Notes: a model not told the origin generated them from the letters alone. DNA of 64,000 nucleotides from Alphaproteobacteria bacterium (GCA_015062235.1 SUUZ01000008.1:272-64271); one strand, 5' to 3'. Numbered from the stretch's first letter, positions 22,550 to 37,304 are shown. A program made the numbers and translations.

Positions 22550-22771
22550 TTATTTTATTCCAGCTTTATTCATTAGATCTTTTATTGTTTTAAAATTCTT
22601 AATTTCATCAAAATCCATTTGAATATTAAGACTGTCAGTAAACATAGATATTGTACACATAATAGCAAGAGAATCCCATTCAGGAAGATCTTCTAATATT
22701 ATATCTTCATGTAAATTTGTATCTGTATTAATAGCTATTTTTAGCTCATTTAAGAATTCTTCTTTATTCAT
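22550..22771 (-). CDS. Dedicated acyl carrier protein
   Basis: From MNKEEFLNELK: 73 aa with a DSL phosphopantetheine-site motif (EWDSLAIM). The ATG is embedded in the stop region of the upstream KASIII gene (tATGAAtaa) and preceded by AAGGAG. Confidence 0.75.
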   Translation of the reverse strand: MNKEEFLNELKIAINTDTNLHEDIILEDLPEWDSLAIMCTISMFTDSLNIQMDFDEIKNFKTIKDLMNKAGIK

Positions 22772-23846
22772 ATTTTTTCTCCTTATAAGTAAATATTGTA
22801 GGTGCATATATTTTATCTAAATTTATGACAGCTGCACCATAAGCTAGTCCGACACCAAAACCAGAAAGTAATAATGTTTTTCTATTGTTTGTAACATCAT
22901 CTGATAAATAATCATTTATAACGCTTGGTATTGAAGCTACCGCTAAATTTCCATATTTTGCCAGTGTGGACGTTGGAACTTTATTAAAATCTTTTTCGCC
23001 AATTCTTAGAGCAATATTTTGAATTATATTCTTATTCGCTTGGTGTAGCACAAAATAGTCAATTTCGTTTACGGTTAAATCGGCAAGACTAAGTGTATCG
23101 TATATATTTTGTGGAACAGTATTCATTGTAAAATCAAAAACATTTTTTCCATTCATTTGGAAATTATTGAGTGATTTTATATTTCCATATTCATCAATAT
23201 TTTCCTTAGATGTCGCTTCAGAATAAGGAATTCTAGCACCTCCCGCAGGAATTATAATGTTTTTATAGTCTTTTCCTTTTGTACCAAGTATAAAATATGA
23301 ATTATTTTCTGTTTCGCTTCTTTCAATTATAGTGGCGGCTGCACCATCTCCAAAAATTGGAGCACAAATTCTATCTTTTATATTAATAGTCTTGGTTTTT
23401 GTATCTCCAACCAAAAGTAAAACTCTTGTACATCCGTTTTCAATAAGAGAACATGCCATACACAAACCATAAACATATCCAGCACAACCATGGTTTATAT
23501 CAAAAGACATACATGTTGTTGGTAAATCTAATTTACCTTGTAAAACACATGAAGTAGGAGGACATTTATAATCAGGATTATCTAAAACACATACAAGAGC
23601 ATCTATTGAATTTTTATCAATATTCATACCCTCAATAATTCTGCTTGCTGCATACTCCATAAGATCGGCAGGAGTCGTGCTTTCAGATGAAACGGCTCGT
23701 TCATTTAAACCGACAACCATTTTTAAGCGTTTAATTTTATTAATATCGTCATAATACTGTGCTTCGTCATCAAGCTTGATTCTATTTTCAGGAACAACAG
23801 TGCATATTCCCATAATCTTTGAGTGATTAAACGTCAAATGTGCCAT
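22764..23846 (-). CDS. 3-oxoacyl-ACP synthase III (FabH-like)
   Basis: Thiolase-fold KASIII features: active-site Cys context (NHGCAGYVYGL), FVLHQANKNI, and C-terminal GFGVGLAYGA. Confidence 0.8.
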   Translation of the reverse strand: MAHLTFNHSKIMGICTVVPENRIKLDDEAQYYDDINKIKRLKMVVGLNERAVSSESTTPADLMEYAASRIIEGMNIDKNSIDALVCVLDNPDYKCPPTSCVLQGKLDLPTTCMSFDINHGCAGYVYGLCMACSLIENGCTRVLLLVGDTKTKTINIKDRICAPIFGDGAAATIIERSETENNSYFILGTKGKDYKNIIIPAGGARIPYSEATSKENIDEYGNIKSLNNFQMNGKNVFDFTMNTVPQNIYDTLSLADLTVNEIDYFVLHQANKNIIQNIALRIGEKDFNKVPTSTLAKYGNLAVASIPSVINDYLSDDVTNNRKTLLLSGFGVGLAYGAAVINLDKIYAPTIFTYKEKKYE

Positions 23847-23862
23847 AGTAATTAATCCTTTA

Positions 23863-24537
23863 TTACTTTATATGTTTTGCAAAAAATGAGGCGCTAATTC
23901 CCAGTCGTTTTTTTGCTGGAATTCCTTCATAAATAGAGTCTTCTTCTGTATTCTTTCTAATAACTGCTGACATTGTTATAAAATTATAGGGGGCTATTTT
24001 AATTTTATCTGCTATAATTGCACCAGATCCCAAAAAACAATTTTCTCCTATTTCGCAAAATCCATTGGTAGAACCAACTATATAACAATTGTTTTTAATG
24101 ATGTTATCATGTGAAATAAAAGCACTTGGCCATATTATTGTATTATCTCCTATAATGCTTTTTCTTAAAATTCTGGCACACTCCATAATTATACAATTTT
24201 TTCCAATTGACACTTTATCGCTTATATATGCATCTGGATGAATAAAGGTTGCTAAGTTATAGCCTTTTTCTATTGCTTGCTTATAAATCATTTCTCTACT
24301 TTTGTTCAGATTAGAATAACCAATAGCAATAAACATTTCATAAACATCAGGTGAATATTTTTTTTCAATATCTTCAAAATCAACTAACTCTTTGTTATAA
24401 AATATTTTACTTTGTTTATAGTCCTTGTTTACAGTAAAACAAACAACCTCATATTCACTATATTCCTCAAAATAATCACAAACCATCTCAGAGTAATTTG
24501 TATTTCCAAATATAATCAATTTTTTATTTTTCTTCAT
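23863..24537 (-). CDS. NeuD/PglD-type hexapeptide sugar N-acyltransferase
   Basis: N-terminal Rossmann-like segment (KLIIFGNTNYSEMV) followed by left-handed beta-helix repeats (IGKNCIIMECA..IGDNTIIWPSA..IGENCFLGSGA). Confidence 0.7.
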   Translation of the reverse strand: MKKNKKLIIFGNTNYSEMVCDYFEEYSEYEVVCFTVNKDYKQSKIFYNKELVDFEDIEKKYSPDVYEMFIAIGYSNLNKSREMIYKQAIEKGYNLATFIHPDAYISDKVSIGKNCIIMECARILRKSIIGDNTIIWPSAFISHDNIIKNNCYIVGSTNGFCEIGENCFLGSGAIIADKIKIAPYNFITMSAVIRKNTEEDSIYEGIPAKKRLGISASFFAKHIK

Positions 24538-24541
24538 ACAT

Positions 24542-25243
24542 TTAAGCTTTCATATATTTTCTAGCATCTAGGCCACAGTTAAAAATCAGATCCAGAATAC
24601 TTACGCCATGCTCAAAGGGTGGATTTAGTTGCGGATATTCAGAATATCCACTATAATCCATCCATGATAATTTAATGTTTTCTTTTTCAAACAAGTTTGC
24701 TTTGATATAATCTCTGGCTGCAGGACCTGATAAATATTCTGTCCCACCGGCTTTTTTTACCAGATCGACAAGTCTTTCTGTCTTACCTTCAATTAGACCA
24801 TAATCCTGAGAAAATGATATTTTTGTATTTATACCCAGTATTTTATTGATTGCATCAATAAATTTATAATTCACCTTGCAAAGATATTCTTCTTGTTCAC
24901 ATTCTTTATATACTTTTTCAAAAACATCTGCATAATCCTTAAAAAAAGGAGCTTTCTTGTAAAACTGTTTAATTGTACTCCAATGAGAATTAGCCCATTT
25001 TCTATCAATAATTTTGGCATCCATTATTCTAACATCATGGCTTATATGTCCTTTTGTAGCGACGGGAATTGATAGCCAATGTAAACCACTTGGAGTTTTT
25101 ATTTTATTTCGATTACGCCAATCATTTTTTGTATACTGCATTTCATCGTAAAATATAAACTCGTCCACTGCGGCGATTATATCAAAATAGCCTTTCCAAG
25201 GAATGTAATTAGATTGTAATATTGCTACTTTTTTATTTTGCAT
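24542..25243 (-). CDS. WbqC-family protein
   Basis: From MQNKKVAILQSNYIPWKGYFDII, a typical WbqC-like N-terminus. The track ORF extends 26 codons further into the upstream gene. Confidence 0.7.
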   Translation of the reverse strand: MQNKKVAILQSNYIPWKGYFDIIAAVDEFIFYDEMQYTKNDWRNRNKIKTPSGLHWLSIPVATKGHISHDVRIMDAKIIDRKWANSHWSTIKQFYKKAPFFKDYADVFEKVYKECEQEEYLCKVNYKFIDAINKILGINTKISFSQDYGLIEGKTERLVDLVKKAGGTEYLSGPAARDYIKANLFEKENIKLSWMDYSGYSEYPQLNPPFEHGVSILDLIFNCGLDARKYMKA

Positions 25244-27044
25244 TAAAAACCTCTCTCCAAAGTGAAGCTTTATATTTGTTATTAAAAAATTTTGAAGCAT
25301 TATCTTTAGAAATATCTGCATCTCTATTTCTAATTAGTTCCTCGAATGTTAAGTTGGCTATTTCGTTACTATCAAAAATTTTAATACCGAAATCATTCAG
25401 ACTACTAAAAGTGGATATTTCTTTTTTTATAAACACTTTTTTACCCAAGGCTATAGAAGCAATTGTATTACCGACCCCTTGTTGTCTATTTTGGTTTAAT
25501 ATCAAAATATCATTTTTAGCAAGATGATTAGCAAAATTCTGCGGAGACATATATTCTTCTATATATTCAAACTTATTACCAAATATTTCTTTTCCTTTTT
25601 TTATAATTTCTGATTTAAATTTCATATCTCCGTATGACAGAATGGTACATATTCTGATATTCTCATTTGCAAATTTAGCTAAATTATCCAACATACCTAA
25701 TGTTGATTTATCACAAGAGTTGTTAATTTGTATTTTAATATAATCGCAATCTTTGTAAGAATGTTTGGCGTTTTTAATCATTTTTAGTGTAATAGGAAAT
25801 ATAGCATGAACACAGTAAAATTGTTTATTAGATAAATTATATTTTATTTGTGCGTAGTTAGCATCAAAATCGCTTAAATAACCCTTTAGATTTTTCCTAA
25901 CAAAATCATTTTTTTCATCTCTTGGAGCGTTATAAAGATCTCCACCCCAAATTACCCAATAAGCTTTTTCTTTCAATATTTTCTTATGATTATATAAATA
26001 CTCGACTAATTCATTATCAAATAGTGAATGACATATAATTTTCTTGCATTTATTAAAGTTTAATTTTTTAAATCTGTCGATCTTAATAACATTTTCACCT
26101 AAAGGAAAGGGATATTGGTCAAAAACCTTTTTGCATAATATTAGGTGCTCTTTAGAGTTAAAATTACTATTCAAAAAATCTACAAAAGGTTTATTAAATT
26201 TGTCGTTAAACATTAAATGTACAAACTTAACATTATCTTTCTTTATCCTATAAGATATTTTTATGTTATTTATTTTCCATTTTATACTTCTGTATAATTT
26301 CATTCCTAACTTTTTACAGCTAGTCCGAAAATTTTGAAAAAAATTAATAATTTTGTATATTTTAATTTTTAGTTTTATTCTTCTTAAAGAAGTCTCATAT
26401 TTTTCTGAATTTGTAATTCTGGTATAGCTATTATCATCGGAGTAATTTAGTAATACCTTTTCGATAAAAATAGGAGTAGATTGTCTGGTATAACGGAGTA
26501 TTAAATCCCAATCGACAAGTCTCTTTAGTTTTGTATCAAAATTACCGTATTTACTAACTAAAGATTTATGATGTACAAAGCAACCCATGTCGATGTAATT
26601 TTTTTTACAAAGATCTGTAAAACTAAATGCTTTTCCAATTACTCCAATATTAGGATGATTCATTTGAGCATAAAAACATTTTGCTTCTATATTAGAAATT
26701 ATTGCCTTTTTAAATTCTTCTAAAAATGTAGGAGTAATTTCATTATCTGTGTCTAAATATGCAATCCAATCATTATTTGCTTTTTTTAATCCTGTATTTC
26801 TGGCAGTACAAACACCTTCATTTGATTTATATTCATATATAAATTTGCCTCTAATAAAATATTTACTGTACTTATTTTTTAAGAGCTTTTCTGTGTTATC
26901 TGTTGAACCATCATCTATGATTATTAACTCATAGTTTTTATAAGTCTGTGCTAACAAAGAATTTATAGCATTTTCTATACAAAAAGCCCTATTATATGTT
27001 GGCATAATGATTGAAAATTTTGGTTCTTTTTGATTAATAGACAT
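25233..27044 (-). CDS. Fusion glycosyltransferase: N-terminal GT2 plus C-terminal WecF-like (GT56, 4-alpha-L-fucosyltransferase family)
   Basis: N-terminus FSIIMPTYNRAFCIENAINSLLAQTYKNYELIIIDDGSTDNT is GT2. The C-terminal half (KFVHLMFNDKFNKPFVDFL ... WVIWGGDLY ... NRQQGVGNT) resembles WecF as I recall it. Confidence 0.6.
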   Translation of the reverse strand: MSINQKEPKFSIIMPTYNRAFCIENAINSLLAQTYKNYELIIIDDGSTDNTEKLLKNKYSKYFIRGKFIYEYKSNEGVCTARNTGLKKANNDWIAYLDTDNEITPTFLEEFKKAIISNIEAKCFYAQMNHPNIGVIGKAFSFTDLCKKNYIDMGCFVHHKSLVSKYGNFDTKLKRLVDWDLILRYTRQSTPIFIEKVLLNYSDDNSYTRITNSEKYETSLRRIKLKIKIYKIINFFQNFRTSCKKLGMKLYRSIKWKINNIKISYRIKKDNVKFVHLMFNDKFNKPFVDFLNSNFNSKEHLILCKKVFDQYPFPLGENVIKIDRFKKLNFNKCKKIICHSLFDNELVEYLYNHKKILKEKAYWVIWGGDLYNAPRDEKNDFVRKNLKGYLSDFDANYAQIKYNLSNKQFYCVHAIFPITLKMIKNAKHSYKDCDYIKIQINNSCDKSTLGMLDNLAKFANENIRICTILSYGDMKFKSEIIKKGKEIFGNKFEYIEEYMSPQNFANHLAKNDILILNQNRQQGVGNTIASIALGKKVFIKKEISTFSSLNDFGIKIFDSNEIANLTFEELIRNRDADISKDNASKFFNNKYKASLWREVFNAK

Positions 27045-28205
27045 CTAAAAACTTTCACTTAATTCTAAATTATTTCCTTTTTTCCAAAACTTTAGAACAG
27101 CATCAATTATTTTTTCAATTTCTTTATTAGTAATATCGTAAAACATAGGTAATCTAACTAGGGTATTTGAAATTTTATTAGTTATTTCCATTGGTGAAGC
27201 TGTTTTACAATATTTTACTCCTGCAGGAGCACTGTGTAGTGGAATATAGTGAAATGGAGCATATATATCTTTTTCTTTTAGAAAACTGATAAACTTTGTT
27301 CTTGTTTCTAAATCATTAAACAAAAGATAAAACATATGACCATTGTTTGTACAATCTGTAGGAATAGTAGGAAGCTTTACCTTTCCTTCTTTTTCTAATT
27401 GAACAAAGGCATTATAATATTTTTTCCATACCTCAACACGTTTTGATTGAATTTTATCAGATATTTCTAATACTGAGTACAGATAAGCTGCCACAACATC
27501 ACTAGGTAAATAGCTTGAACCTTTATCAACCCATGTATATTTATCAACCTGTCCTCTGAAGAACTTACTTCTATTTGTACCTTTTTCTCTGATAATTTCG
27601 GCTCGTTCTGCTAATTCATCATTATTTGTTACAAATAAACCTCCTTCGCCAGACATAATATTTTTAGTTTCATGAAAGCTAAAACACCCCATATCTCCAA
27701 TCGTACCAAGTGGCTTTCCTTTATATTTGGAATCAAATGCTTGAGCTGCATCTTCAATAACTAAAAGATTATGACGTTTGGCAATGTCCATAATTACGTC
27801 CATCTCGCAAGCTACACCAGCATAGTGTACGCAACAAATTGCTTTCGTTTTTGAAGTAATTGCTGCTTCTATTTTAGTCTCATCAATATTTAATATGTCG
27901 GACCTAATATCAACAAATACAGGAACAGCTCCTTGCAATACAAAAGCATTTGCAGTTGAACAAAAGGTGTAGGAGGGCATAATAACTTCGTCACCAGGTT
28001 GTAGGTTTGCTAAAATTGCAGCCATTTCTAAAGCTGCTGTCCCAGAATGAACCAAAAGAGCTTGTTCGCAATTCAAATTTTTCTTAAACCACTCATGACA
28101 AAGTTTTGTATATTTACCATCTCCTGAAGCGTGGTTTTGTGCAAATACATCTAAAATATATTCTGTGGTTTTATCCGTAAAAGTTGGCATATTAAAATTT
28201 ATCAT
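27045..28205 (-). CDS. wecE: dTDP-4-amino-4,6-dideoxyhexose transaminase (WecE/RffA-like, DegT family)
   Basis: Long collinear similarity to enterobacterial WecE as I remember it: GDEVIMPSYTF.STANAFVL.GA, VHYAGVACEMD, GCFSFHETKN, AEIIREKGTNRS.FFRGQVDKYTW. Confidence 0.8.
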   Translation of the reverse strand: MINFNMPTFTDKTTEYILDVFAQNHASGDGKYTKLCHEWFKKNLNCEQALLVHSGTAALEMAAILANLQPGDEVIMPSYTFCSTANAFVLQGAVPVFVDIRSDILNIDETKIEAAITSKTKAICCVHYAGVACEMDVIMDIAKRHNLLVIEDAAQAFDSKYKGKPLGTIGDMGCFSFHETKNIMSGEGGLFVTNNDELAERAEIIREKGTNRSKFFRGQVDKYTWVDKGSSYLPSDVVAAYLYSVLEISDKIQSKRVEVWKKYYNAFVQLEKEGKVKLPTIPTDCTNNGHMFYLLFNDLETRTKFISFLKEKDIYAPFHYIPLHSAPAGVKYCKTASPMEITNKISNTLVRLPMFYDITNKEIEKIIDAVLKFWKKGNNLELSESF

Positions 28206-29101
28206 TTTAAGCCTTTCTTTCTAAAAAAATTGATTGGCAATGGTATCTTGCAAATTTTTATGAGTGACTTGCCTGATTTAGTTATTTTGTTTTGATAAAA
28301 AAGGCGCTTTAATAATTCCAAATCTCTGGGTAGTATTAATGGGAAAATTCTATTAAAAGTTGTCTTAAAATAGTTACAGATATCTCGGTAGCAATCGTTA
28401 AAATCTTGCTTTAGAAAAATTAGCAAACCTCTAACTGATTCCTTACTACATGCCCCTATTACAAAAACTTTTCTTTTTAATAACGGTGCTTTTTGATGTA
28501 TTAACGTTATTGGATATTCTGTTTGATTACAGATTGTTTTAGCCTTAATAAAACTTTCTCCCTTAAAACCAAGTTTTTCTAAAAATGACTTTAGAGGCAC
28601 TTCATAAGTTTTTACTATTTCTCTAAAATCATTTTTATGAGTAACAGCTCCAAGCCAATTTGCAAATTCTTGATGTGTGAATACGTTTTTCTTAAACACT
28701 AAAAAATAGCTTTGTAAATGATGCTGAATTTCTAAACTATCTGTAACACCCCAAAAATCACAGTCTCGTTGGTTCATTTCGCTAAACATTTGGTCAAAAT
28801 CCATAACGGAAAAACAACTATCATTACATAAAATAAGTTCGTCTGCTTCTTCTAACAAACCTTGCTTTGAGGCGTATTGATAACCACGCTTGTAAGAACC
28901 AAAGTCATATTCGCCATGCGGTGCAAAGTCACAAAATTCAACTAACCCGTTTAGTTTCTGCTTTTCTTCAGCTTTTGCTTTGTTGTCTGCAATAAAAATT
29001 ATTTTGTCTGCAACTCGCTTTAGCCTCTTTAGGTAACTTATTACATAATCATGGACTATCCCTTGATTGTCGTATGAGGCATATATTACTAGTCTAGTCA
29101 T
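28202..29101 (-). CDS. RgpF-like glycosyltransferase (paralogue of 7753..8709)
   Basis: TRLVIYASYDNQGIVHDYVISYLKRLKRVADKIIFIADN. ATGA overlaps with both neighbouring genes. Confidence 0.6.
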   Translation of the reverse strand: MTRLVIYASYDNQGIVHDYVISYLKRLKRVADKIIFIADNKAKAEEKQKLNGLVEFCDFAPHGEYDFGSYKRGYQYASKQGLLEEADELILCNDSCFSVMDFDQMFSEMNQRDCDFWGVTDSLEIQHHLQSYFLVFKKNVFTHQEFANWLGAVTHKNDFREIVKTYEVPLKSFLEKLGFKGESFIKAKTICNQTEYPITLIHQKAPLLKRKVFVIGACSKESVRGLLIFLKQDFNDCYRDICNYFKTTFNRIFPLILPRDLELLKRLFYQNKITKSGKSLIKICKIPLPINFFRKKGLK

Positions 29102-29724
29102 ATTTCCCTCATTTTTGTTTTAAGCTCGGGGTGGTCGTGTAAGTATTTAAATATCAATCCCCTGCTACAACCTATGTTTATGGCTATTTCATTTTTGGTT
29201 TTGCCTTGGCTTAGCATTTGCATTATCTTGTATTTGTGCTGTTCTAAGAGGCTTTTTTTCTTGCGTCCAGCTGGAAAACCTAAAACTTTGCCTTCTTGTT
29301 TCCTTCGTTTTAACGCATTAGTTGTAATTATTGAAACCATACTATTTCTGATATCTATAGATAAACGTACACCTTTAAGTAGAACCTTCGTTTGTTTGGA
29401 GTTGTCAAAACTTAGATTTTCTTTTGCGCTTATCAGGCGAAAATTTTCAGATATTAGATTTTCAATATTGTCTGCTATTTGTGAAATCTTGTGGCCAATA
29501 CTGGTAATATTAGCAATAATAATGGTGTTTTCTTTTGTATTGAGGTTGGATTTTATGTTTTTGATATCAGAATCGCTAAAAAAAACATCAACCGAAAAAC
29601 CCTCGCTTTGAGCATATTGATTCACAATGTCTCTTTGGGCGTCAAGACCAATGTTTTTGGGGCTTTTATCTAGGTAACCTATGATCAAAATAAACCTCTT
29701 TGCAACTTTTGGTGGAATATCCAA
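29098..29724 (-). CDS. Serine-recombinase (resolvase/invertase)-fold protein with C-terminal HTH; catalytic motifs appear degenerate
   Basis: Collinear with gamma-delta resolvase/Hin by eye: IIGYLDKSPKNIGLDAQ vs FGYARVSTSQQSLDIQ, IIIANITSIGH vs ILVKKLDRLGR, GFPAGRKKK vs FGRKRK, and HTH GKTKNEIAINIGCSRGLIFKYL. The likely true start is TTG 29688 (AAGAGG SD 6 nt upstream), giving MIIGY... There is no ATG option. It is the first gene of the minus-strand operon. Confidence 0.6.
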   Translation of the reverse strand: MDIPPKVAKRFILIIGYLDKSPKNIGLDAQRDIVNQYAQSEGFSVDVFFSDSDIKNIKSNLNTKENTIIIANITSIGHKISQIADNIENLISENFRLISAKENLSFDNSKQTKVLLKGVRLSIDIRNSMVSIITTNALKRRKQEGKVLGFPAGRKKKSLLEQHKYKIMQMLSQGKTKNEIAINIGCSRGLIFKYLHDHPELKTKMREI

Positions 29725-29739
29725 AAACCACCGTTTTTG
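29722..29739. repeat. Left inverted site CAAAAA-CCACCG-TTTTTG
   Basis: 18-bp site with dyad arms (CAAAAA/TTTTTG) around an asymmetric core. The 15 nt at 29722-29736 are the perfect reverse complement of 29857-29871. Confidence 0.85.
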
Positions 29740-29811
29740 TAGAGGCGATTTTATTGTCTTTAGACATAATGAAAAAAATCACAGAACTGCTTGTATTTAT
29801 TTAAATTTTTG

Positions 29812-29840
29812 TTGCATTATTATTTTTATAAGTTTATAGA
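29812..29840 (+). promoter_or_regulatory. Sigma70-like promoter inside the IR-bracketed cassette, currently facing the + strand glycosyltransferase operon
   Basis: TTGCAT (29812-29817), a 17-nt spacer, then TATAGA (29835-29840). Confidence 0.5.
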
Positions 29841-29853
29841 TTTTAATATGTAA

Positions 29854-29871
29854 AATAAACGGTGGTTTTTG
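29854..29871. repeat. Right inverted site AATAAA-CGGTGG-TTTTTG
   Basis: Matches the reverse complement of the left site at 16 of 18 positions (15 contiguous). The core is inverted (CGGTGG). Confidence 0.85.
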
Positions 29872-29905
29872 TAGATTTATTTTCTTTTATTATATGAGGT
29901 TTTAT

Positions 29906-30856
29906 ATGTCTATCAAACATAAAATATCAGTAATAATTCCCATTTATAATACTGCTAAGTATTTAGAAAAGTGTCTTAGCAGCATACTTTGTCAAAGTTT
30001 GTCTGATATTGAAGTAATTTGTATTAACGATGGCTCAACAGATAATAGTTTAAGCATATTAGAAGAATATGCAAAAAAAGATGATAGAATAAAAATCATA
30101 AATCAAGAAAATTCAGGGCAATCTGTTGCTCGTAACAAAGGGTTGGATGTAGCTAAAGGTGATTATATCTATTTTGTAGATTCTGATGATAGCATTCATA
30201 AACAAACATTGGAAATTATGTATAAAGCTGCCGAAAAGTCAGGATGTTTTATTGTTGCTACAGAGGATATAAATCAACTTAGCAAAAATCATGAGAATAC
30301 AAAGAAATATCAAACAGATGATATTAAATACAATTTACACAATAATCCGTTAAAACATCTTTTAAATAATGTTTGGTCAAGTTCAGTCATATGGAATAAG
30401 CTTTATAAAAGAGAAATATTAAAGGATTGGCGATTTATTGAAGGTATTTATTTTGAAGATTGGCCTTTTATTACTTGTTTATTTTCAACCATCGACCAAT
30501 ATGCAACAATACCTTATTCACTTTATTTTTATAATGATGAAAATGTATCAACAGTAAGAAGTACGTTTACCACTAAAAAACTTAATGATTATATCACAGG
30601 AATTCGTTTTACACATCAGTATTTTCAGGCAAAAGAAAAAATAAAATATGCAAAAGATGTCAGAAAGAAGAGAATTGCTGCATCTATAAAAATGATGATT
30701 AATAAGGTTAAAAGAGAACCAATAAATCATAAAGAGCTAGTCGCTCAATTAAAGGAAAATTTAATTCAGTTAAGAAAAGAAGGTGTTTGGTATTATTCTG
30801 ACCTTCCTTTCAAAATTATATTCCGTTTTTTCAAAATGTGTATGAGAGGATATTAG
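29906..30856 (+). CDS. GT2-family glycosyltransferase
   Basis: ISVIIPIYNTAKYLEKCLSSILCQSLSDIEVICINDGSTDNS and a DSDD motif. I prefer ATG 29906 (GAGG SD 6 nt upstream) over the track start at 29894. Confidence 0.85.
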   Translation: MSIKHKISVIIPIYNTAKYLEKCLSSILCQSLSDIEVICINDGSTDNSLSILEEYAKKDDRIKIINQENSGQSVARNKGLDVAKGDYIYFVDSDDSIHKQTLEIMYKAAEKSGCFIVATEDINQLSKNHENTKKYQTDDIKYNLHNNPLKHLLNNVWSSSVIWNKLYKREILKDWRFIEGIYFEDWPFITCLFSTIDQYATIPYSLYFYNDENVSTVRSTFTTKKLNDYITGIRFTHQYFQAKEKIKYAKDVRKKRIAASIKMMINKVKREPINHKELVAQLKENLIQLRKEGVWYYSDLPFKIIFRFFKMCMRGY

Positions 30857-30857
30857 G

Positions 30858-31748
30858 ATGAAAAAACAACCAAAAATATCTATCATAATACCAGTATATA
30901 ATACAGAAAAATATTTAAGACAATGTTTAACTAGTGTTGTAAATCAAACACTAAAGGATATAGAAATAATATGTGTAAATGATGGTTCTACCGATAATAG
31001 TTTAAGCATCTTGAAAGAATATGCAAAAAAAGATAATCGAATAAAAATTATAGAAAAAACAGTTTCTTCAGGTGCAGGAGATAGTCGCAATCAAGGAATA
31101 AAAGTAGCACAAGGAGAATATCTTTGGTTTGTTGATTCTGATGATTGGGCAGAGCTAAGTACATGCGAAGAAGTTTATAAATATATTCTAAAAAATAAAG
31201 ATATAGATTTTTTAATTTTTGATGCTGATACATACTGTAATAATGCTTTTCATTGTAATGATGGAAATTTGAATAAAAGTTTTTTACCGCAAGAAAATCC
31301 TTTTTATCCAGAAGATTATGCTGAAACATTATTCTATATTTCAAACCCTCCAGCATGGAATAAGATATACAGTTCCGCATTTATCAATAAAAATAAATTA
31401 GAATTTCAAAATTTGAGTTCTTGTAATGATATTGCATTTACTAGATTGTCTTTTGCTATGGCAGAAAAAATCGGATACATAAATTCTGTATTTTATCACT
31501 ATAGAACAGATGCAGAAGGAGCCATTTCTCGCAAAAGAGGGAAAAACTGTTTGAATGTAATCCGAGCTTTTAGGTACATAAAAAACAAATTAAGAGGATT
31601 AGACAAATATAGAATGTATAAAAATTGTTTTTATAAGTCGATAATACCCAATATTCTTTATGAAAAAAAATACGCTAGTTTTTGGGGCCGTATTATACTC
31701 AAATTATATTACTTAAGCATCAATAATTTTAAAACTAATTATAAGTAA
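30858..31748 (+). CDS. GT2-family glycosyltransferase
   Basis: ISIIIPVYNTEKYLRQCLTSVVNQTLKDIEIICVNDGSTDNS and VDSDD. Starts 1 nt after the previous stop. Confidence 0.85.
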   Translation: MKKQPKISIIIPVYNTEKYLRQCLTSVVNQTLKDIEIICVNDGSTDNSLSILKEYAKKDNRIKIIEKTVSSGAGDSRNQGIKVAQGEYLWFVDSDDWAELSTCEEVYKYILKNKDIDFLIFDADTYCNNAFHCNDGNLNKSFLPQENPFYPEDYAETLFYISNPPAWNKIYSSAFINKNKLEFQNLSSCNDIAFTRLSFAMAEKIGYINSVFYHYRTDAEGAISRKRGKNCLNVIRAFRYIKNKLRGLDKYRMYKNCFYKSIIPNILYEKKYASFWGRIILKLYYLSINNFKTNYK

Positions 31749-31773
31749 ATTTAATAATATAAAGGTTAGTAAA

Positions 31774-34503
31774 ATGGAAAAACAGATTATTTATAAGCCT
31801 AATAAAAATATTCCAATAGTATTTATAACAGACAATAATTTTGTAATGCAAACAAGTGTAGCTTTAGTATCTTTAATTAAAAATAGAAGAAATGTTAATT
31901 ATGATATTTTTGTTATAGGAGCAGATTTATCACAGGAAAATATCAATATTATTCAGAATATTGCTTGTTATAAGCAAAATATTACAGTTATTCAAGCAGA
32001 TGTGAATAAAATAAAAAATATTCATAAGTATAATGTGGAAGGTCAAGGAAAGTATCTTTCTGCTAGTGAAGCAGCATTGCTAAAATTTGATTTGCCAAAT
32101 ATATTGGCCGACTATGAAAAAGTAATTTATTTGGATGGTGATGTTATTGTTTTGAATCCGTTAGATGGTTTGTACAATACAGATTTAGGAAGTAATTATG
32201 TTGCTGCGGCACATGATACTGGTAAATTATACTTTGATAGTGGATATAATAGAATATTTCCAAATTATTTTAATTCAGGTGTGATGTTGCTAAATTTGGA
32301 ACTAATGAGACAGCACAATTTAACAGATAAGTTAATTAATACAAAGAAAGAATTAAATGATTCTAATTTAATGGATCAAAATGTGTTAAATATTGTATTT
32401 AAAGATAAAATTAAGATAGTTGATATAAGATACAACTTACTAATTTTAAATTTAGAAAGGGCAAAAGAAAAATGGAATATAGAAGATATTAATAAATTAT
32501 TCAATAGTTCATATACTTGTTTTGAGGAGATAAAAAGACAAGCATGTGTAATACATTTTTCTAGCAAAGATAAACCTTGGATATATAAAGATGTTTCTTA
32601 TGCAAAAGATTGGTATAATTATTATAAAAAAACTCCTTTTAAAAATAATAAATTAGTTCGTGTGAAAAGGGATAATAAGAATAATGTTTTTTTAGAAAAT
32701 ATTTTTTCTATAAAAAATAATAAAGATAAAACACGTAAAATATTACAATTTTTAGGCTTAAAGATAAAAATAAAAAGAAATAAAAATTCTCATTTGGATA
32801 TTAATAGATCAGATACTAAAAATAAAAAGGGAATTATTGTTTCGATGACATCATATCCAGCAAGAATTAATACTGTTCATTTAACAATAGAAAGTTTACT
32901 TAATCAAACATTAAAAGCAGATAAGTTGATTTTATGGTTGGCATTAGAACAATTTAAAAACAAAGAAAATGATTTGCCAAAAGAGTTGCTAGAATTACAA
33001 AATAAAGGGCTTACAATTGATTGGTATCATGATATACGTTCGTATAAAAAACTTATACCAACACTAATAAAACATCCAAATGACATTATTATAACTGTTG
33101 ATGACGATGTTATCTATGATAAAAATTGTATTAAGTTATTGTGGAAGTCACATCTTAAACATAAAAAAACGATAATTTGCCATAGAGGACATTATATACT
33201 ATTTGATAAAAAAAAGAATATACTGCCTTATTCACAATGGAAAAGTCAATATAAAAAGAATAATCCAAGTTATAATATTTTACAAACAGGTGTTGGAGCC
33301 GTATTGTATCCACCTAAAGTTTTGTATAAAGATGTCTTAAATGAAAATCTATTTATGTCGTTGGCTTATGATGGTGATGATTTATGGTTTTGGGCTATGG
33401 CTAATTTAAACAAAACTAAGATCGCTATATGTAAAAACAATATTAATAGGCTATGTTATGTTGATGGAAGTCAAGAAGTTGGATTATGGCATGAAAATGT
33501 TGAAAATTTTGGTAATGATAAAAAGTTACAAAATTTGATAAGTCATTATCCTCAATTACTAAAAAAACTAAATAAGAAAAATTATAATGATATGTGGTTT
33601 AATAAAATTTTCTCAATTACTAAAAGTGGCGACAAAAAGCATAAAATAATTACTGTTTTAGGATTGAAATTTAAAATTAAAAGAAAGAGATTTATTCAAA
33701 AAGAACGTATTAAAAATCTTGAATGCCAAATGGCAGATATTAGGGAATTGCAAAAAAACACAGAAGATCAATTAAATAAGGTGCAAAATAAATTAGATAA
33801 TATTAAAAATGATAGTGAAAAAAAATTTTTAAAAATAAGAAATTTATTTAGTGAGTTAAATTATGCTAATTTATTTCACGATAGTACATTAAATTCAGAA
33901 TGGTTAAAGAATAAAAACTTTTCTTTATATGGAGCTGCTGCTAATTATAGTTTTATTTATACATTATTTAAAATTTTAGATAACGCAAAGCCTAAAAGTA
34001 TATTAGAGTTTGGCTTGGGACAAACAACAAAACTTACATCTCAATATGCAATATATAGTAACTGTAAACTAGACGTTTGTGAACATGATTTAGAATGGAT
34101 AAATATTTATAAAAAACAGCTTCCTGATGAAAAAAATATTAATATAAATCATTTGGATTTAGAATATTTTGATTATGATGGTGTCAGAAATGATAGATAT
34201 GCAAATCTAAATACTATTACAAAAGATAGAAAGTTTGATTTAATAATTATAGATGGTCCAATTGGGCATAAGAAAAATTTTCCAAGATCTAATATTTTAG
34301 AAGTTATTGAAAATAATAGTTTAGATGAAAATTTTATAATAATTATTGACGACACTGAACGCAAGGGAGAGCAGATGTTGATTAAAAAAATTAAAGATAT
34401 GCTAACAGAAAAAAATATCGATTTTGTTTATTCAATACGAGAAGGTAATAAACAACAATCGCTAATTACAAGTACTTCATTTAGCTATATAAAAAATTTA
34501 TAA
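31774..34503 (+). CDS. Three-module protein: GT8 glycosyltransferase, a second GT-A-like module, and a class I methyltransferase-like module
   Basis: aa 10-290 is GT8 (IPIVFITDNNFVMQT, YLDGDVIV, FNSGVMLLNL). aa ~350-590 is a second GT-like module (GIIVSMTSYPARINTV, VDDDVIYD). aa ~640-680 is a coiled coil, followed by ILEFGLGQTT and DLIIIDGP (SAM-MTase-like). Two internal copies of a basic tail motif mark the junctions. Confidence 0.7.
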   Translation: MEKQIIYKPNKNIPIVFITDNNFVMQTSVALVSLIKNRRNVNYDIFVIGADLSQENINIIQNIACYKQNITVIQADVNKIKNIHKYNVEGQGKYLSASEAALLKFDLPNILADYEKVIYLDGDVIVLNPLDGLYNTDLGSNYVAAAHDTGKLYFDSGYNRIFPNYFNSGVMLLNLELMRQHNLTDKLINTKKELNDSNLMDQNVLNIVFKDKIKIVDIRYNLLILNLERAKEKWNIEDINKLFNSSYTCFEEIKRQACVIHFSSKDKPWIYKDVSYAKDWYNYYKKTPFKNNKLVRVKRDNKNNVFLENIFSIKNNKDKTRKILQFLGLKIKIKRNKNSHLDINRSDTKNKKGIIVSMTSYPARINTVHLTIESLLNQTLKADKLILWLALEQFKNKENDLPKELLELQNKGLTIDWYHDIRSYKKLIPTLIKHPNDIIITVDDDVIYDKNCIKLLWKSHLKHKKTIICHRGHYILFDKKKNILPYSQWKSQYKKNNPSYNILQTGVGAVLYPPKVLYKDVLNENLFMSLAYDGDDLWFWAMANLNKTKIAICKNNINRLCYVDGSQEVGLWHENVENFGNDKKLQNLISHYPQLLKKLNKKNYNDMWFNKIFSITKSGDKKHKIITVLGLKFKIKRKRFIQKERIKNLECQMADIRELQKNTEDQLNKVQNKLDNIKNDSEKKFLKIRNLFSELNYANLFHDSTLNSEWLKNKNFSLYGAAANYSFIYTLFKILDNAKPKSILEFGLGQTTKLTSQYAIYSNCKLDVCEHDLEWINIYKKQLPDEKNININHLDLEYFDYDGVRNDRYANLNTITKDRKFDLIIIDGPIGHKKNFPRSNILEVIENNSLDENFIIIIDDTERKGEQMLIKKIKDMLTEKNIDFVYSIREGNKQQSLITSTSFSYIKNL

Positions 34504-34579
34504 ACAGATAGAATATCCAGTGAAACATTATTGATATGTGAGCCAAATGATATTTAATTATAATTGAAAATGTAACATA

Positions 34580-36337
34580 ATGCTAAAGAAACTAAAACAA
34601 TCCTCTCTAATCCAAAACTACTCTAAAATCTATCCATATGTAAAACCATATTGGATTAGGGCATTAATTGCTGTATTAATAACAATTCCAATCGGTTCTA
34701 TGGATGCGGTTATTGCATGGTCTTTGAAACCTTATATGGATGTGGTTATGCTTGAACAACAAACCACTGCTAGTCAAACTATGTTAATTCCTGTATTAAT
34801 CATAGTTTTTAGTTCACTTCAAAGCCTTTTCAATTATACCGCAACCTATATGAATACTTGGGTCGGACAGAAGATTGCCCAAGGAGTTAAGATAGATTTG
34901 TTTGATAAGCTAATGCACTATAATGCTGGATATTTCGATAAGCTGAACTCTGGCGATGTTTTATTTCGTTTTAATAACGATGTAGATATGGCTTGTAGTG
35001 GACTTTTAGCTAACTTAAAGCTTTTTACAACCAGAGTTTTTTCTTCCATTTCGTTGATTGCAGTGCTTTTTTATAATTCTTGGCAATTAGCTTTGGTTGC
35101 AGTTGTGGTTTTAGCAGGAGCTTTATATCCACTTACAACCGTAAGGAGAAAAATTAAATCTGTAATGGATAAAACTATTTTCTCTGGTGCTCGTGTGATG
35201 ACACACTATAATGAAACATTTAGTGGAAACCGTATTGTTACTTCATACAACTTATATGATTATCAAAATGAACGCTTTAAGGAAACATTACGTTCTGTAT
35301 TCAAACTAGGTATGAAAATGGTTCAACGTACGGGTATGATGTCTCCAATGATGCATTTTATTGTATCCTTGGGTATAGCTGCTGTGATTTGGCTTGGAAG
35401 CTATTTAATTGTAACTCATCAAATAACCCCAGGAAACTTCGTATCATTCATTACAGCCTTAATAATGCTTTACAATCCTATTAAATCCATTGGAAATAAC
35501 TTCAATTCGGTACAAATGGCTTTAATGGCTATGGAACGTGTATTTGGATTGTTAGAAGAAGTTCCTGTAATTACAAATAAGCCCAATGCAAAAAAACTAG
35601 GGAAAATCAAGAAATCTATCGACTATAAAGACGTTTGTTTTGAATATGTTAGTAATAAACCAATTCTTAAAAACATAAATTTAAGTATCAAATGTGGTGA
35701 AACCATAGCTTTTGTAGGTAATTCTGGTGGTGGTAAAACCACACTGGTAAACTTGTTGCCAAGATTTTATGATATTAAATCGGGAAGTATAAGCATTGAC
35801 GGACAAGATATCAGAGATTTAGAGCTAAATTCCTTGCGTGATAAGATAGCTATTGTGTTTCAAGACAATTTCTTGTTTTCAGGTACTATCAGAGAAAATA
35901 TCCTACTTGGTAGAACAGATGTAAGCGAAAAACAACTAAACGAAGCTATTAAATGTGCTTGTTTAGAAGAATTTATATCTAGTCTTGAAAAAGGTTTAGA
36001 TACCGAGATTGGTGAGCGAGGCGTTTTGCTTTCAGGTGGTCAAAAACAAAGAATAGCAATAGCTAGAGCTTTTATCAAAGATGCTCCTATTGTTATTTTA
36101 GATGAGGCAACATCAGCTCTTGATAATAAATCTGAAGCAGTTGTTCAACAAGCTATTGATAACCTAATGAAAGACAGAACGGTGTTTATTATTGCACACC
36201 GCCTATCTACTGTTAGGAATGCCGATAAGATTGTCGTTGTAAACTATGGTGAGATTGTAGAAATAGGAACACATGAAGAATTATTGGCAAAAGATAATTC
36301 TATCTATGGTTCTTTATACAAAACACAGATTAAATAG
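34580..36337 (+). CDS. MsbA/PglK-like ABC exporter (fused TMD-NBD)
   Basis: Six-TM N-terminal half. Walker A GNSGGGKTT, signature LSGGQKQR, Walker B VILDEATSALD, H-loop IAHRLST. Confidence 0.85.
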   Translation: MLKKLKQSSLIQNYSKIYPYVKPYWIRALIAVLITIPIGSMDAVIAWSLKPYMDVVMLEQQTTASQTMLIPVLIIVFSSLQSLFNYTATYMNTWVGQKIAQGVKIDLFDKLMHYNAGYFDKLNSGDVLFRFNNDVDMACSGLLANLKLFTTRVFSSISLIAVLFYNSWQLALVAVVVLAGALYPLTTVRRKIKSVMDKTIFSGARVMTHYNETFSGNRIVTSYNLYDYQNERFKETLRSVFKLGMKMVQRTGMMSPMMHFIVSLGIAAVIWLGSYLIVTHQITPGNFVSFITALIMLYNPIKSIGNNFNSVQMALMAMERVFGLLEEVPVITNKPNAKKLGKIKKSIDYKDVCFEYVSNKPILKNINLSIKCGETIAFVGNSGGGKTTLVNLLPRFYDIKSGSISIDGQDIRDLELNSLRDKIAIVFQDNFLFSGTIRENILLGRTDVSEKQLNEAIKCACLEEFISSLEKGLDTEIGERGVLLSGGQKQRIAIARAFIKDAPIVILDEATSALDNKSEAVVQQAIDNLMKDRTVFIIAHRLSTVRNADKIVVVNYGEIVEIGTHEELLAKDNSIYGSLYKTQIK

Positions 36338-36493
36338 CAACATTATCTATCATTTGAAATTTAAGATTTGTAAGTTCTTCGGATAATCTATCAGCTCGTG
36401 CTTTTTTATGCAAATACTGTTGCTTACAGTAACAATAAGTTATATATAATAATCTAAGCAAAGCCGTTATCAATCAAAAGGGATAGCAGACAA

Positions 36494-37171
36494 ATGCCAA
36501 AAGCAATTTTACTCGACTGGGACGAAACTCTTGCTCACACACGATGTTCCGTTATAGAGGCAATGGAACATACTCTAAAAAAATACAACAAAGAACCTTG
36601 GAATATTACAAAAACCAAATACAGAGACACCAAAAAATCACTAAAAGAAAACTTCCCCAATTTTTTTGGTTCAGATGCTAACAATGCTTATACCGAATAT
36701 CTAAAATACTACACCAAATATGCTTACAACAAAGTTTTGCCAATGGAAAATGCCAGTTCTTTTCTAAAGTTCTGCAATCAAAACAATATCGATTTATATA
36801 TTGTTTCCAACAAAGAAAAATCTTTACTGCTAAAGGAAGTCGACATTTGCTTTCCTAATATCTTATTTAAAAAAATTCTAGGTAATGGCGATGCCCCTCA
36901 AAACAAGCCAAGTCCTGATCCCGTTTTTACCGCACTAGACAATGTCTGTTATAAGATAGACAAAGATAATGTTTGGCTAATTGGCGATAGCAAACAAGAT
37001 ACCGAATGCGCATACAATGCTAATATTCAACCAATTTTGCTTGGTAAAGGAAAATTTATGGACGATGCTTATATCAAAGCAAAAACAAATTCTTCCTTAC
37101 CATTACTGGTTTTTGAAGATTTTAAAGAAATTGCTAATTATCTACGTCTCAAAATTGATAACACAATCTAA
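36494..37171 (+). CDS. HAD-superfamily phosphatase (phosphoglycolate phosphatase-like)
   Basis: LLDWDETLAHT (DxDxT), VSNK, and GDSKQDTECA motifs. Confidence 0.7.
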   Translation: MPKAILLDWDETLAHTRCSVIEAMEHTLKKYNKEPWNITKTKYRDTKKSLKENFPNFFGSDANNAYTEYLKYYTKYAYNKVLPMENASSFLKFCNQNNIDLYIVSNKEKSLLLKEVDICFPNILFKKILGNGDAPQNKPSPDPVFTALDNVCYKIDKDNVWLIGDSKQDTECAYNANIQPILLGKGKFMDDAYIKAKTNSSLPLLVFEDFKEIANYLRLKIDNTI

Positions 37172-37179
37172 AAAAAACA

Positions 37180-37210
37180 AAAGAGTTGCAAAAATATTTG
37201 CAACTCTTTT
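37180..37210. terminator. Bidirectional terminator between the HAD gene and tRNA-Leu
   Basis: Perfect 13-bp stem aaagagttgcaaa/tttgcaactcttt with a 4-nt loop. The T-run is strong on the minus strand (after the tRNA) and modest on the plus strand. Confidence 0.8.
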
Positions 37211-37218
37211 ACTTTAGT

Positions 37219-37304
37219 TGGTAGGGGTGGTCAGACTCGAACTGACACGGCCTGAGGCCACAAGATTTTGAGTCTAGCGCGTCTACCAGTTCCGCCACAC
37301 CCCC
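37219..37304 (-). tRNA. tRNA-Leu (anticodon CAA), CCA encoded
   Basis: The reverse complement folds as GGGGGTG-TG-GCGG-AACTGGTAG-ACGC-G-CTAGA-CTCAAAA-TCTTG-TGGCCTCAGGCCGT-GTCAG-TTCGAGT-CTGAC-CACCCCT-ACCA. It has a long variable arm (class II) and a GTTCGAGTC T-arm. There is one U-U in the anticodon stem and a G1-U72 pair. Confidence 0.9.

Follow-up and report, generated by a model that had tools for sequence, protein, structure and literature searches.

A probable Mpi/Hin-type invertible promoter between two glycan operons of an uncultured alphaproteobacterium, with a degenerate invertase paralog heading one of them

In this study, we analyzed a 64,000-nucleotide stretch of DNA from an uncultured alphaproteobacterium (GCA_015062235.1, SUUZ01000008.1:272-64271; hereafter, the window), in which two divergent glycan operons are separated by a cassette that carries a promoter between two inverted sites. 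The first gene of the minus-strand operon encodes a protein related to small serine recombinases whose active site is degenerate, and this protein is called pseudo-Mpi here. We believe that the cassette is very probably an Mpi/Hin-type invertible promoter (inverton), which would be flipped in trans by a serine invertase of the Mpi family.

The inversion of this cassette in nature is real, and switches in both states were found in four lineages, one of them with this cassette. The same cassette, together with a protein identical to that of the window and with identical flanks (the adk terminator on one side and a gene leader on the other), was in one orientation in the metagenome contigs L001 and L024 and in the opposite orientation in L002, and the orientation breakpoints between L001 and L002 fell exactly at the sites. 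The type-B switch, which has the core CCACCC and adjoins an invertase gene, was reversed in L004 compared with L025, L026, and L030. In the lineage of the 62%-identical paralog P0002, the switches of L038-L040 and L044-L048 were reversed compared with those of L037, L041, and L042. Among the loci that share the P0092 invertase, L057 was reversed compared with L054-L056, L058, and L062, and L061 was reversed compared with L060. A first-pass annotation of the window, made from its sequence, had proposed, as one of two alternatives, a promoter that is invertible between flanking inverted repeats, and this proposal was supported by the identical cassette in both orientations in independent assemblies and by the three further lineages. 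Many contigs ended at or inside the switch, as expected of a population of mixed orientation. The 830-bp ENA contig L042 (positions 1-60) has an ON-state switch of the P0002 type whose far side is joined to a pseudo-Mpi leader of the window type. This join may represent divergent pseudo-Mpi genes that share a switch, a recombinant between loci, or a chimera across approximately 30 shared nt, and it was not used as evidence.

The gene-proximal site of the window (CAAAAACCACCGTTTTTG, 29722-29739) and the distal site (AATAAACGGTGGTTTTTG, 29854-29871) are in inverted orientation and contain an exact 15-nt inverted repeat, CAAAAACCACCGTTT, at 29722-29736 on the plus strand and at 29857-29871 on the minus strand. 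The positions of the two 18-bp sites and the perfect 15-nt repeat given in the first-pass annotation were thus reproduced, and its description of dyad-symmetric arms needed correction for the distal site, where the dyad is imperfect (AATAAA versus TTTTTG). A search for further copies, as had been suggested there, covered the window and returned the two sites as the sole exact copies of the repeat; when up to two mismatches were allowed, 4 matches were obtained where 0.24 would be expected, a count that none of 100 shuffles reached. Both sites read best as hix-like 12-2-12 sites of 26 bp each, in which predicted 12-bp half-sites of the type TCTACAAAAACC surround an asymmetric AC dinucleotide. 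The site centers are at 29730/31 and 29862/63, and the unique DNA between the 15-nt repeats occupies 29737-29856. The same layout was present in the sister loci, with AC or AA at the center. The half-site, TATCCAAAAACC or TCTACAAAAACC, resembles that of Hin (hix), which is TTATCAAAAACC. The core and half-sites of the window are those of the adk-flanked copy known in both states. At 29710-29733, the site core can pair with a complement 12 nt deeper in the pseudo-Mpi leader (GGTGG...CCACC), and the sister loci have a matching C:G to G:C change in this pairing (CGGTGG..CTACCG versus GGGTGG..CTACCC). A leader hairpin was predicted in four leaders (the window, L025, L037, and L006), with an energy that was not significant compared with shuffles (z -0.5 to -1.2).

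The predicted promoter inside the segment consists of TTGCAT (29812-29817) and TATAGA (29835-29840), with the position and the 17-nt spacer of the first-pass annotation, and in the orientation of the window, transcription from it would cross the distal site and enter the plus operon. A generic promoter scan of this AT-rich DNA gave a count no higher than that in shuffles and left this promoter out, because the scan demands T at position 6 of the -10 hexamer. The scan was uninformative; therefore, conservation across lineages was used for the promoter. When the segments were oriented alike, the pattern TTGCAw-N17-TAwrAr was found at an equal distance from the site in seven lineages whose proteins are 45-62% identical. 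The conserved promoter lies within the segment, approximately 16 nt from the inner edge of one site, and any transcript from it would thus have to cross a site.

The geometry of the two outputs is nearly the same. If transcription is assumed to start at approximately 29847, the leader is 59 nt to ATG 29906 and, after inversion about the site centers, 58 nt to TTG 29688; the arithmetic of near-equal leaders in the earlier annotation holds with this start. Measured from the site center, the start codon is reached after 43.5 nt in the plus operon and after 42.5 nt in the minus operon. There is no space outside the switch for a promoter of the plus operon's own, because its ATG is only 34 nt past the distal site (Shine-Dalgarno sequence GAGG at 29896-29899). 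The plus-side junction, GGTTTTTGTAGATT, resembles the gene-side junction of the sister loci. From the site-to-start distances and this likeness, both ends of the switch seem to be built as gene-side ends, and we take both to be output ends.

The coordinates of the features discussed here are listed in Table 1.

Table 1. Features of the switch and its surroundings in the window (positions counted from the first nucleotide of the window)
Feature	Position	Strand	Description
Gene-proximal crossover site, hix-like 12-2-12 (predicted)	29718..29743	none	TATCCAAAAACC / AC / CGTTTTTGTAGA
Distal crossover site, hix-like 12-2-12 (predicted)	29850..29875	none	GTAAAATAAACG / GT / GGTTTTTGTAGA
Invertible segment, ~130 bp	29732..29861		Between the central dinucleotides; both orientations known between identical flanks
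Sigma-70-type promoter inside the segment (predicted)	29812..29840	+	TTGCAT, 17 nt, TATAGA
Near-consensus sigma-70 promoter-like site outside the segment	29889..29916	-	TTGATA, 16 nt, TATAAT
Pseudo-Mpi gene, 196 aa	29098..29688	-	First gene of the minus operon; start TTG 29688; longest open reading frame (ORF) to TTG 29724
Minus glycan operon after pseudo-Mpi	22550..29101	-	Seven genes (ORFs and Pfam)
Plus glycan operon	29906..36337	+	GT2, GT2, GT8-containing 909-aa protein, ABC exporter (ORFs and Pfam)

Flipping at the two-operon locus of the window, that is, an either/or toggle, is what we infer from the intact sites and from the flipping of the same cassette elsewhere. Several observations weigh against it. 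There are 23 window-type contigs on record, 15 of which were collapsed as similar, and all 8 readable contigs point the promoter at the plus operon. The exact search of the JGI metagenome contigs for the flipped junction CTCTACAAAAACGGTGGTTTTTGTAGATTTAT gave 0 matches. No invertase gene was found in the window, in which tblastn with eight sister invertases hit only the pseudo-Mpi gene. In addition, the near-consensus minus-strand site outside the segment overlaps the ATG of the plus gene and is directed toward the invertible promoter, the switch, and the minus operon; the two strands of the window have only four matches of at least 11/12, this one included. This predicted fixed promoter could feed the minus operon in either orientation and blur the either/or choice, or it could alternatively take part in promoter interference. 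Of the either/or switch of the first-pass annotation, cassette inversion was seen in the contigs with the adk flank, and at the window-type flank one orientation was read in 8 of 8 contigs.

Because the window encodes no invertase, flipping at its locus would have to occur in trans. Among the loci of species-representative genomes, an intact serine recombinase of 195-211 aa adjoins the switch in 7 of 10, and its gene is usually divergent from that of pseudo-Mpi. These sister invertases have the N-terminus MIYGYCRISTxxQ and the motifs YxR(V/I)ST and SRLGR, score 109 bits on Pfam Resolvase, and have Gin as their best solved relative. The 195-aa L025 invertase, scored with NCBIfam NF009949 (master DNA invertase Mpi family), reached 269.2 bits, just below the cut-off of 272, and the name given by PGAP to the homologs in these metagenome-assembled genomes (MAGs) is also 'master DNA invertase Mpi family'. 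As judged from these matches and motifs, the invertases beside the sister switches are members of the Mpi family with intact catalytic motifs. Flipping in trans by an invertase from another locus is plausible, because the 15-nt repeat is common to two pseudo-Mpi loci of one genome (ERZ25021412, two contigs at approximately 8x coverage), two invertase-bearing loci occur in one sample, and the two switch types have their half-sites and their AC center in common. The first-pass annotation had considered a recombinase encoded elsewhere as one alternative, and it gains support from the intact Mpi-family invertase in most related loci and from its absence in the window. In the invertase-adjacent sister loci, the promoter points at the invertase gene in the OFF orientation and at pseudo-Mpi in the ON orientation.

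Some further observations concern the sister loci. A palindrome, CTTATAAATAGTTACATAACTATTTATAAG, is conserved between the invertase start and the distal site (L005, L007, L008, L010, L013, and L054-L062); its 3' arm runs into the Shine-Dalgarno sequence of the invertase gene, and the variants in L004 and L011 change both arms together. It could be an operator or a hairpin that sequesters the ribosome-binding site of the invertase. Two loci are decaying: L007 has a 5'-truncated invertase gene and only approximately 7 nt of the repeat, and in L011 the pseudo-Mpi gene is split by a frameshift. The tandem-type loci (L009, L012, and L032-L036), whose five contigs do not differ from one another, gave no convincing inverted repeat and were left unclassified. 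In L032/L033, the genes for HU, invertase, pseudo-Mpi, and glycosyltransferases are co-directional and directly follow phage tail genes (GpJ-like), so that glycan modification may be linked to a prophage there.

For pseudo-Mpi, TTG 29688 rather than 29724 was taken as the start, because the homologs begin at MIIGYLD. The lengths called for this protein are 196, 208, 211, or 222 aa; they vary with the choice of start, because the longest ORF extends past the crossover site and into the segment; orientation also has a part in this in the P0002 lineage. The Pfam models proposed as a check in the first-pass annotation both matched just below their cut-offs, namely Resolvase (PF00239) at 22.9 bits versus 23.3 and helix-turn-helix HTH_7 (PF02796) at 23.3 versus 23.8. 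The NCBIfam Mpi model matched over the full length at 80 bits (cut-off 272). A PDB search by sequence alone with the family profile gave matches only at the level of the helix-turn-helix (HTH), with the Hin DNA-binding domain at E = 0.011, and for this reason the fold was established through structure prediction. The AlphaFold2 model from a 42-sequence alignment had a pLDDT of 72, and in Foldseek its top 11 matches were all small serine recombinases, with a probability of 1.0 and full-length alignments; the best were the Tn3, gamma-delta, and Sin resolvases and Gin. On this evidence, pseudo-Mpi folds like the small serine recombinases, with an E-helix and with an HTH at its C-terminus, and the Foldseek result and the Hin domain match bear out the serine-recombinase fold with a Hin-like HTH that had first been noticed.

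Residues were aligned with those of Gin and the sister invertases and are given in gamma-delta numbering. Throughout the pseudo-Mpi family, R8 is replaced by an invariant Asp, R68 by S or C, and R71 by H, N, or S, and the Glu/Arg positions of the E-helix are also replaced. At position S10, the window protein has Ser, and many members have Asn or Gly. The earlier claim of an active site that had lost its Arg residues and kept its Ser was right for the window protein and, for the Arg losses, for the whole family, but the Ser is not kept in many members. With Arg8, Arg68, and Arg71 lost and the Ser not conserved, pseudo-Mpi is predicted to be catalytically dead. Lineage-specific motifs, namely KENxxL and the linker, are common to it and the local invertases, and because of these motifs and the full-length match to the Mpi model at only 80 bits, we regard it as a degenerate Mpi-family paralog. 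Pfam and NCBIfam gave only the Resolvase, HTH_7, and Mpi models, with no homology to UpxY/NusG or UpxZ.

Pseudo-Mpi is under purifying selection and shows no decay. Between pseudo-Mpi and a paralog, the value for nonsynonymous changes (pN) was 0.24 versus 0.73 for synonymous changes (pS), and the stretch LSIDIRNSMVS is invariant apart from two nearly invariant residues. The comparison of nonsynonymous and synonymous rates (dN/dS) between the window and L004 was uninformative, as the two proteins differ only in a recombined C-terminal tail. The family comprises 34 clusters (50% identity) below E = 1e-30, with dozens more before the true invertases are reached. In every locus examined, pseudo-Mpi was the first gene of a glycan operon, and members only approximately 25-30% identical to the clade of the window protein still head glycan operons. 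One distant member, L049, has a candidate inverton. A family-wide locus search of the JGI contigs returned only 2 loci, and no family member was found in the viral (IMG/VR) contigs. In some loci (L009, L013, L032-L036, and L055-L058), the gene after pseudo-Mpi encodes a 332-334-aa protein with many faint HTH matches. The family profile also matches long proteins with 5-11 repeated HTH units (e.g., P0239, P0259, and P0304).

In the reading that we consider very probable, an Mpi-family small serine invertase would cut at the central dinucleotides and rotate the segment of approximately 130 bp. In the window state, the promoter would drive the plus operon (GT2-GT2-GT8-ABC), and in the flipped state it would stand in equivalent geometry before pseudo-Mpi and the seven glycan genes downstream of it. 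Pseudo-Mpi is, in this reading, a duplicated invertase that lost its catalytic residues and kept the fold, the E-helix, and the HTH, and it may act as a regulator that binds DNA or the invertase and is made only in the ON state of its own operon. FljA and UpxZ offer an analogy, according to which it could either silence rival glycan loci or else bias the switch or lock it. Among possible roles of pseudo-Mpi, we favor that of a regulator whose action is tied to the orientation of the switch. A more specific form of this proposal, which we put forward tentatively as a possibility, is that pseudo-Mpi is a dead invertase subunit, made only from the ON orientation, which acts on the switch machinery itself to lock or bias orientation or to silence other glycan loci. 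Such a subunit might occupy the hix-like sites or, by means of the invariant E-helix, join the invertase in mixed complexes that are inactive, and the silencing of other phase-variable glycan loci would result in one glycan for one cell. Some features of the family speak against the action of pseudo-Mpi at the sites: in its clade, LGFPAG stands where the invertase has its GRP minor-groove arm, the recognition helix is unlike that of the invertase, and the operon headed by the distant member L051 has a fixed promoter, with no inverted repeat detected. Together, they argue against simple competition for the same half-sites and leave open other DNA targets or protein-protein action.

Other explanations were weighed against an invertible promoter that is coupled to a regulator. 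Pseudo-Mpi might be a plain transcription factor that works as a repressor or roadblock at or near the hix-like sites and has no role in recombination. The use of the sites as operators was the second alternative of the first-pass annotation, and it can go together with the first one. The retained HTH_7 with its match to the Hin DNA-binding domain, the retained E-helix, the need of transcripts to cross a site, the repression exerted by TnpR at res sites, and the inverton-free member that still heads a glycan operon are all consistent with this, but pseudo-Mpi departs from the cognate invertase in the GRP arm and the recognition helix, and the site sequences do not sort with the pseudo-Mpi clades, and we consider it rather doubtful. 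It is unlikely that the switch of the window is a fossil, in which the plus glycan operon replaced an adjacent invertase gene and the cassette now serves as a fixed promoter of that operon. The single orientation of the readable window-type contigs, the unmatched flipped junction, and the lack of an invertase in the window would fit a locked switch, and decaying relatives are known, as seen from the truncated invertase and weak repeats of L007 and the frameshifted pseudo-Mpi of L011. However, both sites are intact, with the core and half-sites of a copy found in both states, in related genomes, other loci that have an invertase show nearly the same half-sites and likewise an AC center, and assemblies give only the majority orientation, here from 8 of 23 contigs.

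That pseudo-Mpi is itself the invertase and works through a non-canonical active site is very improbable. It always adjoins the switch, the window copy has a Ser at the Ser10 position, and the window has no other recombinase; on the other hand, this Ser is Asn or Gly in many members, the three Arg residues and the Glu/Arg residues of the E-helix are replaced family-wide, and most loci have an intact Mpi-family invertase alongside. The explanation by a chance inverted repeat or an assembly artefact, without biological inversion, has a practically negligible probability. Although short repeats are abundant in AT-rich intergenic DNA, the pair in the window is exact over 15 nt and its count was reached in none of the 100 shuffles, and an assembler cannot flip the segment because the k-mers used for assembly ('k141' contigs) greatly exceed the repeats in length. 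It was refuted by the recurrence of both orientations, with breakpoints exactly at the sites, in four lineages.

The window has a G+C content of 33%. Its relatives are all MAGs of uncultured 'Alphaproteobacteria bacterium', several of them from species-level genome bins (SGB), and the source, where named, was sheep colon. According to Pfam, the seven genes after pseudo-Mpi encode an RgpF-like protein, a DegT aminotransferase, a fusion of glycosyltransferase families 2 and 56 (GT2/GT56), WbqC, a PglD-like acetyltransferase, a KAS III-like protein, and an ACP-like protein. Eight ORFs were counted in the minus operon, in agreement with the first-pass annotation, whereas four ORFs, not the five genes given there, were present in 29906-36337. 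The longest ORF of WbqC (24542-25321, minus) overlaps the upstream GT2/GT56 gene (25233-27044, minus) by 89 nt; its true start is probably later, as the Pfam match begins at residue 36. Beside tRNA-Leu (37219-37304), the window stretch 36467-37224 with a HAD-family gene is 94% identical to L056, in which it abuts an invertase, switch, and pseudo-Mpi locus and not a plus operon and tRNA. Because the window and L056 differ in what adjoins this stretch, the HAD gene looks like an anchor in a hypervariable glycan region.

In the literature searches, no account was found of a dead invertase paralog beside or coupled to an inverton, nor of this system in Alphaproteobacteria. Promoter inversion driven by Mpi is the textbook route of surface variation in gut Bacteroides. 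The present switch is a homologous system in another phylum, in uncultured Alphaproteobacteria of animal and human guts, which points to convergent or horizontally shared answers to immune and phage pressure in the gut. For Bacteroides, the question has been raised of how multiple invertible glycan loci are coordinated and how inversion rates are biased (PMC10403206). If pseudo-Mpi regulates the switch or rival loci, it would offer a directly testable answer to this question. If the reading of pseudo-Mpi as a dead subunit is true, a new layer of phase-variation control would have been built by the domestication of a recombinase. The switch also explains the assembly breaks at these loci and the differing N-termini from gene callers.

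Studies have shown that the master serine invertase Mpi of B. fragilis flips the IR (inverted repeat)-flanked promoters of seven capsular polysaccharide loci, which are headed by upxY/upxZ (PMC10403206, PMC11685472). The present system is similar in that the invertases of the sister switches belong to the Mpi family by NCBIfam and PGAP, short invertible promoters precede glycan operons, several loci occur per genome, the first gene is regulator-like and locus-specific, and the organisms live in the gut. It differs in its host, an uncultured low-GC alphaproteobacterium, and in the invertase genes, which usually adjoin individual switches instead of being one master copy. The first gene is also different, being a predicted dead copy of the invertase and not a NusG paralog (UpxY) or UpxZ, so that the likeness is positional, and in the window one switch stands between two operons.

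The sites resemble those of Hin, Gin, Cin, and Pin (hix/gix), with two 12-bp half-sites around a 2-bp crossover, and this likeness extends to the proteins, since the sister invertases have their best solved relative in Gin and the Hin DNA-binding domain matches the HTH of pseudo-Mpi. In Salmonella fljBA, fljA, a gene in the switched operon, silences the alternative locus, which is a functional precedent for the role proposed for pseudo-Mpi. Unlike the Hin system, the segment of the present switch is only approximately 130 bp, has no recombinase gene inside, and targets glycan operons instead of flagellin. As in E. coli fimS, a short invertible promoter is present whose orientation feeds back on the supply of recombinase, here in the invertase-adjacent sister loci; however, FimB and FimE are tyrosine recombinases, both active, and have no dead paralog. 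The small serine-recombinase fold with an E-helix and HTH is shared with TnpR of Tn3/gamma-delta, among the top structural matches of pseudo-Mpi. TnpR acts as a repressor at res by binding sites that overlap promoters, but it is an active enzyme, whereas pseudo-Mpi has lost the catalytic residues and belongs to no transposon. The switch is homologous in kind to those of B. fragilis Mpi and Hin/hix, and its new part is the conserved, apparently dead invertase paralogs that head the switched glycan operons.

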